The position numbers and the translations under genes are program-made. DNA of 64,000 nucleotides from Promethearchaeota archaeon (GTDB lineage Archaea; Asgardarchaeota; Lokiarchaeia; Sigyniarchaeales; SOKP01), in the NCBI GenBank assembly GCA_030603385.1, contig JAUVXW010000023.1, positions 1 through 64,000 of the forward strand. The letters are read 5' to 3'. The notes under the pieces were generated by a model. It was not told the DNA's origin. It did no database searches and saw only the letters and a program-made list of their open reading frames with translations. Shown here piece by piece: positions 12,257-24,454 of this stretch (position 1 is the stretch's first letter; every line of letters starts with the position of its first letter).

Positions 12257-13054
12257 CTATTTTTCGTCTTTTTCGTCTTTTTTTTCTGCCTCTTCTTCTT
12301 CTGGAGCTAATGAAATCTCAGATATAGCCTCCTCGTCTACTTCATCAATTATTTTTTCATCTTCTTTGGCTAATCCAGATGCTTCTTCCTCAATAATATG
12401 TTCAACTTTTGTTTTGGCTAATTTTGATTCTGCCTCTGCTTGAGCTTTAGTTAAAAGATCATATTTTATCTTAACTTCATCACCCATCTTTGTATCAACA
12501 TGCTGAATTTTTACGACTATCCCTAAAGTTCCAGATTTTTGAACACACTGTGCTACACCCTTATCGACTCCTTCTTGTGATTGATATCCACTTTTTGTCA
12601 TTGTTCCAGCTCGAAATATTTGCGTTCTGGCCCTTTGACTCGTAACCTTACCCGAGACCCGGATTTCAGCGCCAAGAGCACCTCCAGAATCCATGATTTT
12701 TCTAAGGATATAATAACCCGCTCTTCTATAATGACGACCTCTATCTAAACTGTATGCTAAGCGTTCTGCCATGATTTGTGCATTCAAATCAGGATTCGGA
12801 ACCTCCTCGACCTCTATTTGTGGCATTTCTAAGTCAAATCGATCCTGGAGTATATCTGTAATTTCTTGGATGCGTTTTCCCCCTTTTCCAATTACTAGAC
12901 CAGGTCTACTTGTTCTTAAAGTAATACGTACCCCAAGCGGAGTTTTTTGAACATCAACGCCTGCAAAACCTGCTCGAACTAATTCTGATCGCAAATATTC
13001 ATTTATTTGCATCAATTTTATACCCTGCTCAATAAAATTCTTCACTAGGGGCAA
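12257..13054 (-). CDS. rps3p: 30S ribosomal protein uS3 with acidic C-terminal tail
   Basis: RAGFAGV, RPGLVIGKGG KH motif, GAEIRVSGK...RA; TTG start after GGTGA. Confidence 0.98.
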   Translation of the reverse strand: MPLVKNFIEQGIKLMQINEYLRSELVRAGFAGVDVQKTPLGVRITLRTSRPGLVIGKGGKRIQEITDILQDRFDLEMPQIEVEEVPNPDLNAQIMAERLAYSLDRGRHYRRAGYYILRKIMDSGGALGAEIRVSGKVTSQRARTQIFRAGTMTKSGYQSQEGVDKGVAQCVQKSGTLGIVVKIQHVDTKMGDEVKIKYDLLTKAQAEAESKLAKTKVEHIIEEEASGLAKEDEKIIDEVDEEAISEISLAPEEEEAEKKDEKDEK

Positions 13055-15083: not shown

Positions 15084-16052
15084 CTATTCTATCTTAATAT
15101 TTAATTCTTTCAATTTCTCTTCAATTTCATTTAAATAAGGCATTGAATCTTGAGCACCCTTCCTAGTAACTGCTATAGAAGCAGCAATCGTTGCATACTT
15201 CACGGCATTTATTATTGTATCACCTTGACTGAGTTTGCTAGCCAGGACTCCAATAAAGCAATCTCCAGCGCCAACTGTATCTACGGCATTTACTTTAGGA
15301 GTCGCTATATCAATAAACTTATCTTCAGCACCTATATAAATTAAAGACCCTCTATTCCCTAAAGTGGTTATTACATATTTTATACCTAATTTAACAATCT
15401 CTCTTGAAGCTTGTATGATTTTAAGTTTCCCTTCACCGGTTAACTCACGTAGATTTAAGAGTGAATGCAACCTATATAGCTCTCCTTCGTTAGGGACAAT
15501 AATATCAATTTTTTCCAAAATTTCAAGAGGAATTTGCTTCAATGGAGCAGGATTTAAAATTTTTATAACATCTCCTTCTGAAGCAATTTTGAATACTTCC
15601 TCAATTGTCTCAATTGGTATCTCCATCTGAACAACTAACGAACTAGCATTTTTGATAACATCTGCTTTAGCTTTTATTTCCTCTACAGATAATTTAAGAT
15701 TTGCTCCAGGGGCTACACTAATCATGTTTTCCCCTTTATTATCGATCAATATAAAGGCTACACCACTTGCTTCTTCTGTATCTCTGATTATATGACTCAT
15801 ATCTATGACATCTTCAGCTAACTGAGAAATCATTTGATTTCCAAAAGAATCCATACCAATTTTTCCAATGAAAACAGTATTTGCTCCCGATCTAACTGCT
15901 GCTACAGCCTGGTTAGCACCTTTGCCACCTAGAAATTGTTTAAAGATCCCACCAGTGACAGTTTCTCCCGGATTTGGAAAACGCTCAGAATAGATATTTA
16001 AATCCATATTACTAGAACCAATAATTAAAACATAATTAAGCGTTTTACTCAT
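15084..16052 (-). CDS. rbsK: Ribokinase (PfkB family)
   Basis: GSSNMD, GGKGANQAVA, QMEIP, LNPAP, PNEGE, DTVGAGD. Confidence 0.93.
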   Translation of the reverse strand: MSKTLNYVLIIGSSNMDLNIYSERFPNPGETVTGGIFKQFLGGKGANQAVAAVRSGANTVFIGKIGMDSFGNQMISQLAEDVIDMSHIIRDTEEASGVAFILIDNKGENMISVAPGANLKLSVEEIKAKADVIKNASSLVVQMEIPIETIEEVFKIASEGDVIKILNPAPLKQIPLEILEKIDIIVPNEGELYRLHSLLNLRELTGEGKLKIIQASREIVKLGIKYVITTLGNRGSLIYIGAEDKFIDIATPKVNAVDTVGAGDCFIGVLASKLSQGDTIINAVKYATIAASIAVTRKGAQDSMPYLNEIEEKLKELNIKIE

Positions 16053-16183
16053 ACTATAAACACAGTATATAGATATAATTATGATTTTTATTATTTTTTA
16101 AATAATATATTTTATTTTTAATAAAATAGTCTTAAGTTTTTATGTCATATTATCTAAAAAAGGGATTTCTTAAAAAAAAGTAA
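16047..16183 (+). repeat. 137-bp direct repeat, copy 1 (includes rbsK start codon and upstream region)
   Basis: Matches 17783-17919 at 135/137 positions. Confidence 0.95.
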
Positions 16184-16293
16184 TTAATTCTTGCTAAAAA
16201 ACAAATACCCCATTAAGATTTAAATTTAGGAATAATCTTATCTAATTAACTAAGACAATTTCTTTTTCATAAAATAGCAAAACAAATGGAAGA

Positions 16294-17781
16294 ATGGAAG
16301 AATTCAAGGTTAATGAATATATCTCACTCAGGTTGAAAGGAAAAGAGACCTTCATTTACATACAGGGAGAGAAGTTTATCCAATGTAAATACTTACTATT
16401 AAATATCCCAGTAGAAGAGGTTAGCTCTCTCGATGAAATTAATTCGATTGATGAGGCTGCAGATTTATTAGATAACTCCTTAGAGCCTGAACCACAGATA
16501 GGACTAAGACGTAATGACAAAATACCTCCCGATACCGAATTTTGGGGGCATTGTTCAAACTTACAAGTCTGGACAGAAATGGATTATGACACAAAGCTCC
16601 TACATAGAAATATCGCCTTCCCGTTGCTAAAAAAACTAACGGATGTAGGTGATCCATTAGCAAAGAAAGTATTTAAAGAAGAAATTGCTAAGAGAATTGA
16701 TAGTCGATTTAACCCAACTATTACATTCTTAGTGGAAGAAGGTTATTTAGATTATCTATCAAGTGATTATTTGGAAGATATTGTGTATAAAGGTTATTTG
16801 AAATTTATTTTTGAACCCCTAGTTGAAAAAATAAATACCATTATAGAAAATGAAGACTCTACAGCAGTCTCCTACCTAATCGGTTACAAATACTTGAAAT
16901 ACTTAAATAGCAAAGTCTTAGTTCATCTCTTTGAAAATCCAAAAATTAACTTCCTTGATAAAATAATTTTTGAAATGGATGATGACCCATTGGGAATTGG
17001 AGAATGGGGTTATTCGTTTTTTGACAAGATTGGAGATACAATATCTCACGCAGTAAGAGAAAAGTTAATGAATCTTATAGAGGAGAAAGACTTAAAGATG
17101 TTTATTAAGATTATAGAAGCGTCACTATTGAATAATCTAAAAAAAAAGGATCTCTTATTTTTAATTAAAAATCCAAAAATAGACTTATTAGAAACAATCT
17201 TAAAGACATTAAGATCAACAGATATAGACTCTGCGTTTTATTATGGCCAAAAAATATTCTCAAAAAAGAATATAAAATATGCTAAACAATCCATAAATGA
17301 AAAAATATTAGAGATAATAAAGCATAATAATCTAAATGAACTCTGCCAAATAATTGGGCTTGGCTTATTAACGCTATTAGATGACTACGATTTTGAATTA
17401 ATTTTAAGAGATCCAAATATAAAAATTCTTGAAAATTATATTAAAGTATTTGAACTTCAAGAATCATATAGTGCTGAATTATCTAAATATGAAATCAAAG
17501 CAGAATACTATCCGAATGAATTTTTCAGCCAGATCTTAAAAAAGTTTCCTATTTTATTCAAGAAAAAATTCAATGAGATTCTGGACACATGCAATACAAC
17601 AGACTTAACAACTATAATTGATTATGAATTGCTGGATTTAATAACTAAAAGAGAATTAAAACATTTTTTAAAGCTTACAAAAACTAATTTTTTAGAAAAG
17701 TTCGAAAACGCTTTGAAAGAAATAGAAAAAATAGAAAATATGAAACTCGAAAAATATCACTGGATATTAAATAAAACTTAG
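16294..17781 (+). CDS. Lokiarchaeal-type conserved N-terminal domain fused to four helical repeats
   Basis: EFKVNEYISLRL...FIQCKYLLLNIP...EFWGHCSNLQVW...LLHRNIAFPLLKKL..GDP.AK.VFKEEI; recalled as an expanded Lokiarchaeia family often fused to LRRs; repeats ending NPKINFLD/NPKIDLLE/DPNIKILE/TKTNFLE. Confidence 0.75.
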   Translation: MEEFKVNEYISLRLKGKETFIYIQGEKFIQCKYLLLNIPVEEVSSLDEINSIDEAADLLDNSLEPEPQIGLRRNDKIPPDTEFWGHCSNLQVWTEMDYDTKLLHRNIAFPLLKKLTDVGDPLAKKVFKEEIAKRIDSRFNPTITFLVEEGYLDYLSSDYLEDIVYKGYLKFIFEPLVEKINTIIENEDSTAVSYLIGYKYLKYLNSKVLVHLFENPKINFLDKIIFEMDDDPLGIGEWGYSFFDKIGDTISHAVREKLMNLIEEKDLKMFIKIIEASLLNNLKKKDLLFLIKNPKIDLLETILKTLRSTDIDSAFYYGQKIFSKKNIKYAKQSINEKILEIIKHNNLNELCQIIGLGLLTLLDDYDFELILRDPNIKILENYIKVFELQESYSAELSKYEIKAEYYPNEFFSQILKKFPILFKKKFNEILDTCNTTDLTTIIDYELLDLITKRELKHFLKLTKTNFLEKFENALKEIEKIENMKLEKYHWILNKT

Positions 17782-17782
17782 A

Positions 17783-17919
17783 ACTCATATTATAAACACA
17801 GTATATAGATATAATTATGATTTTTATTATTTTTTAAATAATATATTTTATTTTTAATAAAATAGTCTTAAGTTTTTATGTCATATTATCTAAAAAAGGG
17901 ATTTCTTAAAAAATAGTAA
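17783..17919 (+). repeat. 137-bp direct repeat, copy 2
   Basis: Begins 2 nt after the stop codon of 16294-17781; 2 mismatches versus copy 1. Confidence 0.95.
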
Positions 17920-17948: not shown

Positions 17949-18272
17949 TTATTCGGAACCTTCTTCCTCAGCTGCTAATTCCTGTTCTAATTCTTCTAAT
18001 GGAACTGGTGCAGGCGTGGTCAACATACTATAACCAATCCAAACAGCGATGATTGAAATGAGTACAACGAGCAGCCAAATTGGCAAAACTACAAAAAGTC
18101 TCCAATCAAGCCAATCGATATCAAATAGATTAGCCCAAGAATCCCACTCACCTGAAGATGGAGCCCAAATCGTGGTAAATAATAAATCTAATACAGATCC
18201 CATCGTATAAACTATTGCAATTAAAAGCCCGACAACAATAACAATAGCCCCTATCAATTTATCTTTTGCGAT
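17949..18272 (-). CDS. DPM2-like two-TM protein; probable ATC start
   Basis: (M)AKDKLIGAIVIVVGLLIAIVYT...FVVLPIWLLVVLISIIAVWIGYSML resembles DPM2 (DQVVG...YYT...AIP...ISYVML); SD GGAGTTGA 6 nt before ATC at 18272; ORF track starts at TTG 18257. Confidence 0.6.
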   Translation of the reverse strand: MAKDKLIGAIVIVVGLLIAIVYTMGSVLDLLFTTIWAPSSGEWDSWANLFDIDWLDWRLFVVLPIWLLVVLISIIAVWIGYSMLTTPAPVPLEELEQELAAEEEGSE

Positions 18273-23302: not shown

Positions 23303-24454
23303 TTATTTTACTTCACAAATTTTTATCTCATCATAATCTACATAAACTTTGTATAATCCTCGCAAATTTTTATCTAATTCAGAATCTCGAGTATCTAAAC
23401 GTAATATTTGATTTGCTATATTTTGTAATTTAAATTTTGATGAAATAATAATAATATTTTTGGAGCTTACTTTCTTTATCACTTGTGGAGTAAATTGTAG
23501 ATTACCTCTTCCAAATATAAAACCTTGTTTACCTATTGGGGATATGATAATTATAGCGTTACTTTTTTTAATATATCTTAAAATTTCTTTTTCATTTAAA
23601 TCAGTTGCTATTATTTTTTTATTTAAACACAAATCAATACCTAATATTGTTTTAGGTTGATTTAATTTATCTGCTATAACTTTGGTCGTAGTTCCTGGGC
23701 CTAAAAGATAATATATATCATTTTTTAATGACTCAATTATTCGTTTCGCGATACGTTCTTGGTTATCTAAATCAGATTCAGGTGAACCCATTTTAGATAA
23801 TTGCATATAATCTGGACTAAAAGGTGTAAGTAAATATCCATATAAACTTGTTATCAATTTTCCATTCCTATATTCATTTTCATTTATATCTAACACTACT
23901 GACTCTTTCAATGGAATTTCATCCAATAGAAATTGAAGTATAAGGCTACTTGCTACTTTAGGGTTTAGGGAAAACACACTTGAATAAATTTTCACACCCG
24001 CAGGAATTCCTAAACAAGGTACAGTTTTACCAATTATATTAAAAATATCTCTGGCTGTGCCATCACCACCAACAAATAATAAAAGATTTAGGTCATCAAA
24101 GTGTTTTATGATTCCAGCAGCAACTTTAGTATGATTAGCAGTAGTATCTAAGATTTCTTCCACTTTATTGAATAATGGATGTTTAATACAAGTATATTCA
24201 AAATTAAACTCCTTTTCTAAAAATAAAGATTCACCCATAATTCCAGGGCAGATTATAAATTTCAAATTTGCCTTTATGGATTTTAATTCAATTAAGAGTT
24301 CTCTAGTTCGGTCTACAGCGCTCGGTTTAGCTCCCATTTCTATAGCGTCTAGTAAAATTTCTTTACCATCAGTCCCTTTTAATCCAACAGATCCGCCCAT
24401 TCCTGAGATTGGGTTTATTATCAAACCTATTGTGAATTTAATTTGATCTTTCAT
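23303..24454 (-). CDS. ATP-NAD kinase/AcoX family protein
   Basis: INPISGMGGSVGLKGTDG, GGDGTARD, GIPAGVK.YS.VF, GPGTT, QGFIFGRGN.Q. Confidence 0.9.
   Translation of the reverse strand: MKDQIKFTIGLIINPISGMGGSVGLKGTDGKEILLDAIEMGAKPSAVDRTRELLIELKSIKANLKFIICPGIMGESLFLEKEFNFEYTCIKHPLFNKVEEILDTTANHTKVAAGIIKHFDDLNLLLFVGGDGTARDIFNIIGKTVPCLGIPAGVKIYSSVFSLNPKVASSLILQFLLDEIPLKESVVLDINENEYRNGKLITSLYGYLLTPFSPDYMQLSKMGSPESDLDNQERIAKRIIESLKNDIYYLLGPGTTTKVIADKLNQPKTILGIDLCLNKKIIATDLNEKEILRYIKKSNAIIIISPIGKQGFIFGRGNLQFTPQVIKKVSSKNIIIISSKFKLQNIANQILRLDTRDSELDKNLRGLYKVYVDYDEIKICEVK

Follow-up and report, generated by a model that had tools for sequence, protein, structure and literature searches.

A single gene of a Promethearchaeota archaeon, here called X, is enclosed between two copies of a 137-bp direct repeat that consists of host chromosomal sequence. 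The window in which it lies, a 64,000-nt stretch (JAUVXW010000023.1, positions 1 to 64,000), is contig C51 of genome G000, a 3.89-Mb metagenome bin of 58 contigs with 31% G+C and an estimated contamination of 7%. The repeat, the empty site in related genomes, the absence of any recombinase and the recurrence of the same architecture with unrelated cargo are established. The balance of the evidence inclines towards an insertion with long target duplication (ILTD), produced by host break repair or replication with no enzyme encoded by the element itself. The parts of the locus are listed below; G002 is the sister species of G000, and L069 and P0002 are a metagenome contig and a protein that represent another haplotype.

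16047 to 16183, strand not applicable: repeat copy 1 (A1), joined to the working kinase gene: the start codon of that gene and 131 bp of the spacer upstream of it
16184 to 16293, plus strand: leader of the insert, 110 bp, without counterpart in the empty site of G002
16294 to 17781, plus strand: cargo gene X, 495 aa, TAG stop, reading frame intact
17080 to 17781, plus strand: 3' part of X, sharply divergent from the L069/P0002 haplotype, with the breakpoint near codon 262
17782, strand not applicable: one base that separates the X stop codon from copy 2, the right boundary of the insert
17783 to 17919, strand not applicable: repeat copy 2 (A2), an orphan kinase start plus spacer, whose right side joins the normal 3' flank of the DPM2-like gene
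15084 to 16052, minus strand: left flank, PfkB-family (ribokinase-type) kinase of the rbsK type, Pfam PF00294, E 5.7e-64
17949 to 18257, minus strand: right flank, small DPM2/PIG-P-like membrane protein, weak match to PF08510 (E 0.002, below the cut-off)

The first-pass annotation of this stretch had reported a near-perfect repeat with two differences, and both the coordinates and the differences proved exact to the base. The copies are identical at 135 of 137 positions, with mismatches at repeat positions 9 and 132 and a central 122 bp without change, and identity breaks off sharply at both edges of each copy. Each copy starts on the left with the reverse complement of ATG AGT, codons 1 and 2 of the kinase gene, which thus lie within copy 1; the remainder is almost the entire spacer, up to 29 nt from the stop codon of the DPM2-like gene. 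The repeat is present in just two copies in the whole genome (BLAST, E 4e-64), the remaining matches being AT-rich and at most 73 nt long. It is a unique host sequence and not a tRNA or attachment (att) site or the end of an element. The unique segment between the copies (16184-17782) measures 1,599 bp and is made up, as previously described, of the 110-bp leader, one open reading frame (ORF), X, and a single base after its stop codon.

No inverted repeats were found at the ends of the insert, where the best matches are AT-rich and 72% complementary. Its ORF has no transposase or recombinase domain in Pfam and no match to a recombinase fold, and there is no room for an attC-like site downstream of X, since the insert stops one base past the stop codon. 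A search of the window between 10 and 24 kb detected no tRNA; the genes of this region are all syntenic housekeeping genes in relatives, and none of the neighbours within at least 6 kb of the insert is a mobility gene. The reported lack of a transposase and of terminal inverted repeats therefore stands, and an integrase and a tRNA are likewise absent.

The kinase locus was compared across 12 congeners, together with a thirteenth, G058. In ten of the 12, the sister species G002 and nine others, the kinase and DPM2-like genes are directly adjacent with nothing between them; this is the empty-site allele for which the first-pass annotation had recommended a search. Kinase orthologues (65-85% identity) occupy the same context in 18 congeners, and the DPM2-like gene adjoins the kinase gene in every congener examined, in either orientation. 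G002 is regarded as the sister species because a tree of seven linked genes has the form ((G000,G002),(G004,G058)), with G018 outside. Between the kinase start and the DPM2-like stop, its spacer of ~164 bp, in which the kinase start and repeat sequence occur once, is colinear with copy 1 followed by the right flank, and where copy 2 meets the DPM2-like flank the sequence is likewise exactly colinear with this empty site. Removal of one repeat copy and the insert recreates, as had been proposed, a spacer that matches those of G002 and other congeners. At both mismatch positions copy 1 has the G002 state and copy 2 does not, so both changes lie in the orphan copy 2.

The same architecture occurs elsewhere in the genome. 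On contig C30, a 241-aa paralogue of X (C30:101947-102672) lies between gyrB and gyrA, with a 35-bp repeat (33/35) on either side; this repeat includes the final codons of gyrB together with its stop codon. This insert also ends one base past the stop codon of its cargo. The two gyrase genes are ~45 nt apart in G002, G004, G012 and G006, with one repeat copy, and no gene related to the cargo was found near gyrB/gyrA in relatives. The cassette ORF starts with an exact 21-bp tandem duplication of seven codons, ATGCAAATATTCAAAATAAAT twice (C30:101947-101988; L033:4948-4989), the first copy of which shares two bases with the end of the 35-bp repeat.

On contig C12, an alpha/beta hydrolase gene is held between 114-bp repeats (109/114; C12:38280-39287), and at this site G002 has a single repeat copy with the flanks side by side. 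An orthologous segment elsewhere in G002 matches the entire 1,008-bp insert at 87% identity; its neighbour there, as in G004, is the orthologue of the G000 gene C48_23365 (contig C48). G000 itself has a single copy of the hydrolase segment, and at the old site (C48 ~23341-23365) two neighbour genes are now 24 nt apart. Because the ancestral place of the gene in G002 and G004 is elsewhere and G000 has only one copy, the hydrolase is a resident gene that has been relocated. A further gene lies between 69-bp repeats at C5:34000-35066, where G002 and G004 are empty and have a homologue at a distance of 0.7-3 kb; at C5:32424-32485, a remnant of the former upstream region of this cargo overlaps the repeat start by ~15 nt. 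At C19:8187-9695, a PLD-like gene is associated with a duplication of ~270 bp, and in G018 this cargo is on the other side of the neighbouring gene.

These cases have in common a gene-sized insert, no element-encoded enzyme and junctions that mostly lack homology. In the four with demonstrated empty sites the duplications measure 35, 69, 114 and 137 bp. Junction microhomology is absent at C51 and C12 and amounts to ~15 nt at C5; inspection by eye of the C51, C30 and C12 junctions revealed no shared motif or microhomology, and no shared motif was seen at C5. The boundary one base past the stop codon is common to C51 and C30 and is not general (stop+6 at C12, stop+83 at C5). The repeats often include the start or stop codon of a neighbour and leave the neighbouring gene intact. 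Known donors are chromosomal and in many cases close by, and the donor copy has since been lost. The remnant at C5 together with this donor loss speaks for copying with later loss, and against excision.

Comparison of the genome with itself revealed many further local direct repeats that bracket genes. Their cargo is unrelated and includes an alpha/beta hydrolase, a HepT/MNT toxin-antitoxin pair, a methyltransferase and corrinoid protein pair, a nitronate monooxygenase, CN-hydrolases and a PLD-like protein, among others. When genes of at least 100 aa are counted as bracketed at a repeat score of at least 24 within 450 nt, 34 of 3,194 genes (~1%) are individually bracketed. Among mismatched pairs of upstream and downstream flanks (~3,194, in three replicates) none was bracketed and none reached a repeat of 27 nt. 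The first-pass annotation had proposed a check for flanking repeats on all genes of the X family, in the expectation that the structure might explain how the family spreads. Flanking repeats were found around two of the 17 matches of X in its own genome, at C51 and C30. The check thus added the gyrB/gyrA paralogue, but only 2 of the 14 members of at least 100 aa are bracketed, while the figure for the remaining 3,180 genes is 32 (odds ratio 16, p 0.009). The enrichment rests on small numbers and is as expected for a variable accessory family and not for a family-specific mechanism; with unrelated cargo bracketed alike, the proposed explanation for the spread of the family is not supported.

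Other repeat-bracketed units were noted in the same comparison. At C36:96862-98221 (L036) the HepT/MNT pair lies between 160-bp direct repeats that are 94% identical, and its left flank is one of a multi-copy family of genes with Ig-like domains. Four small uncharacterised ORFs are surrounded by a direct repeat of 127 bp that is exact (C36:83119-83245 and 85412-85538; L034); 127 is a common largest k-mer of short-read assemblers. A second expanded family, of large Ig-like/esterase-like proteins with 35-51% mutual identity, has members inside or beside several bracketed units (C36:95376-96662, C20:18472-21888, C38:33998-36574, C19:34416-35840). Further repeat-separated cassette arrays are located on C19 (35.9-41 kb), C9 and C43.

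Residues 1 to ~165 of X form a conserved N-terminal 'FWGHCSN' domain, while the C-terminal part is helical and variable. In an alignment of 61 family members, the residues E82 F83 W84 G85 H86 C87 S88 N89 are almost invariant. The family is uncurated, and the statement in the first-pass annotation that it is heavily expanded was borne out: more than 1,660 Promethearchaeota homologues have the N-terminal domain of X, fused to LRR, TPR, Rab/Arf-type small GTPase, WD40 and other modules. The full-length type is rare, the C-terminal part being present, among 53 other genomes of the genus, in G058 alone (40% identity). X has no match in Pfam or PADLOC and no relative on viral contigs, and a protein atlas look-up returned unnamed Promethearchaeota clusters only. 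Its AlphaFold2 model (pLDDT 77.6) consists of three strands and a helical bundle, with residues 33-72 disordered. The model of the N-terminal domain had no match in the PDB (Foldseek, best E 2.4), and a wide VIA-align search yielded generic helical repeats alone (best Z 3.8). As far as domain searches and the model go, nothing points to a nuclease or recombinase, which suggests that X can be treated as passive cargo.

X-type genes at this locus are also known from other haplotypes. In L069, a 1,859-bp metagenome contig (Ga0114925_10096971), the kinase start, spacer, leader and X are joined as in the window. Over its first 1,058 nt the contig matches the window at 88%; in 100-bp blocks identity varies from 69% to 100%, and it reaches 100% across 16880-16979. 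The leader is 94% identical. At the DNA level, identity is 84-100% up to ~17079 and 47-61% beyond. The X gene of L069 continues into at most 20 nt of the spacer end and into the DPM2-like flank (92% identical) and stops 20 codons on. Protein P0002, which comes from a different data source, shares this C-terminal tail, from which its genomic context was inferred, and an N-terminus identical to that of X; because this data set is independent, the L069 haplotype is real. The native end of the L069 type of X is '...WITDLLK', as judged from G058 and P0007, and the L069 junction consequently falls within ~13 nt of microhomology between the gene end and the spacer end. X is 80-91% identical to the L069/P0002 proteins over residues 1-262 and 38-46% identical thereafter, its C-terminal part being nearer to P0003-P0005, which together with P0002 are the closest homologues of X. 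A sharp recombination breakpoint is thus located inside X at codon 262 (~17080), with 262 conserved codons on the 5' side and 233 divergent codons on the 3' side. This pattern suggests that variable C-terminal halves are exchanged behind the conserved N-terminal domain.

If the structure at C51 is an ILTD, a linear segment of 1.6 kb, comprising the leader and one passive gene up to one base past its stop codon, would have been joined into the spacer between the kinase and DPM2-like genes, and the 137 bp between two breaks in the target strands would have ended up on both sides of the insert. Two variants can be envisaged. Nicks in opposite strands 137 bp apart could have allowed the segment to be end-joined, the overhangs then being filled in. 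Alternatively, a broken or stalled 3' end could have copied the segment from an ectopic or foreign template, with re-entry by rejoining of the target 137 bp behind the point of departure. Homologous recombination between the two copies could afterwards delete, amplify or transfer the unit.

Several points weigh against this interpretation. L069 has the same left junction without a second repeat copy, at most the last 20 nt of copy 2 being left. In G058 the same gap contains an X-type gene (48% identity) that points the opposite way and has no repeats, and G004 carries an X-like gene just downstream of the inverted DPM2-like gene, also without repeats; upstream of the latter, 72 nt are 73.6% identical to the C51 leader. 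X may therefore have occupied the locus for a long time instead of having newly arrived. The first-pass annotation had inferred a recent insertion and held that relatives with the gene at this site and no duplication would count against it. Such relatives exist in part, namely L069/P0002, G058 and G004, and a recent first arrival of X is not established. L069 is either a deletion derivative, formed by microhomology, or an older form that preceded the duplication. The divergence between the repeat copies, 1.5% (2/137), is too imprecise to order these forms, and the divergence of the flanks from L069 is 3-8%. X-type genes, as these comparisons indicate, have a longer history at the locus, which is a recombination mosaic. 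Moreover, the two-copy structure is known from metagenome assembly alone, and the steps of breakage and fill-in (or template switch), with their order, are inferred and not observable. Elsewhere in the genome, the candidates on C6 and C8 and both candidates on C36 lack demonstrable empty sites and were left out of the insertion tally: at C6 the cargo (the nitronate monooxygenase) and its right flank adjoin each other in relatives, at C8 the cargo is at the same place in relatives, and the flanks of the C36 candidates at 83 kb and 97 kb are multi-copy or absent in relatives.

Campbell-type integration, which had been suggested in the first-pass annotation, is a less likely origin for the duplication and a reasonable rival at C51 only. 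A circularised fragment that began at kinase codon 2 and extended one base past the X stop codon would have integrated by a single crossover within the 137-bp spacer. The donor would be an L069-like relative with X already beside the spacer, and the recipient an empty site. Indeed, the spacer-leader-X haplotype exists, joined as in the window, in two independent data sets, the sister species G002 holds the empty recipient site and the locus is mosaic with respect to L069, with its sharp breakpoint in X. The two differences between the copies fit a polymorphism between donor and recipient as well as later mutation. However, the donor would have to carry the type-a 3' half of X beside the spacer, and none has been observed; nor was X found on viral contigs. 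The scheme also fails for gyrB/gyrA, C12 and C5, where cargo and target were not previously adjacent: the C12 cargo derives from another locus, and the 35 bp of homology at gyrB/gyrA are short for a crossover. The suggestion can thus be kept for C51 and cannot account for these other cases.

It is less probable still that X is an old resident and that only the second spacer copy is secondary, acquired by tandem duplication and random loss or by allelic replacement of the right half. In the duplication route, the unit of spacer, leader and X would have been duplicated in tandem and the second leader and X then lost. The X-type genes in or near the gap in G058, G004 and L069, none of them with repeats, are consistent with such a history. 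The cargo at C5 and C19 has hopped over one neighbour, as tandem duplication with reciprocal loss predicts, and the old upstream remnant at C5 points the same way. Two or three events with a clean deletion would nevertheless be needed, and the junction of copy 2 is exactly colinear with G002. In addition, X is inverted relative to G058, and tandem duplication does not invert. The route fails for C12, where the donor is on another contig, and for gyrB/gyrA, where no relative has a related gene nearby.

An assembly artefact, in which a separate molecule or strain variant such as a circle of spacer, leader and X was threaded into a one-copy chromosome, is very improbable. The fragmented and partly contaminated bin and the identical central 122 bp of the two copies would be compatible with it. 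The copies nonetheless differ at two positions, the junction between the X stop and the kinase start would have to be present in reads, and independent assemblies place X at the C51 locus; the repeats at other loci are 4-14% diverged, so they cannot be graph collapses. A non-autonomous transposon, integron-type cassette or integrase-borne islet mobilised in trans can hardly be entertained: despite the cassette arrays on C19, C9 and C43, the C51 repeat is unique host sequence without terminal inverted repeats or space for an attC-like site, the four duplication lengths are unlike those of an enzyme with a fixed stagger, and the junctions at C51, C30, C12 and C5 have no common motif.

Copy 2 retains the kinase promoter region and ATG AGT, which open a minus-strand frame of 35 codons antisense into the 3' end of X; this copy may therefore drive antisense transcription of X. 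The DPM2-like gene flips orientation among species while its neighbours stay fixed. It is co-directional with the kinase gene in G000, G002, G018, G006 and G058 and divergent from it in G003, G004, G008, G011, G012, G014, G015, G016 and G017; a search for inverted repeats around it in 11 relatives found just chance matches of 11-18 nt. The orthologue of the window gene at 12257-13054 is split in G018 into two ORFs (L025, G018:C85 8992-9826), with residues 58-76 missing between them, which could reflect a frameshift or a tRNA-type mini-intron.

C51 and its sibling cases extend ILTD to archaea and to non-nuclease cargo, and they recur within one genome. The archaeal host, the non-nuclease cargo and the relocation of a resident gene point to a host process. 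If this is correct, ILTD in general would, given that the cargo is no nuclease, be a product of host repair or replication and not of restriction-enzyme activity, and each bracketed gene would be a self-contained cassette that homologous recombination could delete, amplify or pass to relatives. It is conceivable, and we put it forward tentatively, that Asgard archaea of this genus routinely both acquire and relocate single genes by such a recombinase-free, duplicative route, which leaves target duplications of 30-270 bp. The route would then be a major driver of changes in gene order and also of how hypervariable families, the FWGHCSN proteins among them, turn over. Asgard genomes are rich in expanded, variable families of the signalling type, whose turnover such shuffling of single genes would help to explain. 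Repeats of this kind are easily mistaken for att sites or assembly errors.

Among known systems, insertion sequences (IS), transposons and casposons likewise leave the target sequence directly duplicated on either side of the insert. Their duplications are short, 2-15 bp, and of a length fixed by the enzyme. Such elements also encode a transposase or casposase and are delimited by defined ends, as a rule inverted repeats; C51 has none of these features. An IS element or DNA transposon was ruled out on the absence of inverted repeats, the absence of a transposase in the insert and its neighbours, and the 137-bp length of the duplication. An integron gene cassette was rejected since there is no room for attC and the genes within ~6 kb are syntenic housekeeping genes, and an integrase-borne island since the only ORF lacks both a recombinase domain and a recombinase fold. 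The attL/attR repeats of islands, including islands that restore a gene end, resemble the C51 repeats in that direct repeats include the end of a host gene, which is kept intact. Unlike such islands, the C51 unit has no integrase in or near it and no tRNA, and its repeat is the whole spacer and not a recombination core, with a length that varies from case to case.

Tandem duplication with random loss and template switching of the fork stalling and template switching (FoSTeS) or microhomology-mediated break-induced replication (MMBIR) type explain local hops with duplicated spacers and the copying and subsequent loss of a donor copy. Both fit the hops at C5 and C19, while distant donors or foreign cargo need extra steps. 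A further difference is that most of the junctions examined lack microhomology.

Homology-facilitated illegitimate recombination generally removes or substitutes DNA of the recipient and is not known to duplicate it. As far as the available accounts of the process go, it resembles the C51 structure in depending on host recombination alone, with one homologous and one non-homologous end; the homologous end here could be the 5' half of X or the spacer, which would fit the breakpoint in X. These accounts describe it in naturally competent bacteria (PMC3240628) and, in Vibrio, as displacing variable 3' gene parts of type VI secretion system effectors (PMC5361080).

The closest counterpart is ILTD itself, which has been described for bacterial restriction-modification genes and whose mechanism is unsolved (Furuta, Abe and Kobayashi 2010, PMC2853133). 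The first-pass annotation had taken the mechanism for one uncharacterised as a class; the structure in fact matches ILTD (PMC2853133), which, as cited in that paper, has been known since Nobusato et al. 2000 (Gene 259:99). Furuta et al. reported ILTD in several bacterial phyla, with repeats that span start or stop codons; none of the cases that passed their selection was archaeal. They suspected that the cargo itself breaks DNA, and they pointed to evidence for repeat-driven amplification (PMC2853133). A literature search for ILTD-type insertion in Asgard archaea found no report. ILTD is recognised by direct repeats longer than 30 bp, by an empty site with one repeat copy in a related genome and by an insert below 20 kb without mobile-element genes whose repeat is not a tRNA or att site. 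At C51 the repeat is 137 bp long, the empty site is present in G002 and nine congeners, and the insert of 1,599 bp is free of such genes, its repeat being neither tRNA nor att site. The ILTD screen also required restriction and modification genes as cargo, whereas the cargo here is a WGHCSN-domain/helical-repeat protein, and elsewhere in this genome hydrolases, a toxin-antitoxin pair and metabolic enzymes are carried.

The C51 structure differs from bacterial ILTD in its host, an Asgard archaeon, and in a cargo that is not a restriction or modification gene or a recognisable nuclease. Double-strand breakage inflicted by the cargo therefore cannot be the cause. A further difference is that the cargo at C12 is a chromosomal gene relocated within the genome. 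In common with ILTD, a gene-sized insert without a mobility gene lies between repeats of variable length that are single-copy in the empty-site genome and permit later amplification or loss. C51 operates in the manner of ILTD and broadens the class beyond the cargo for which it was first described.

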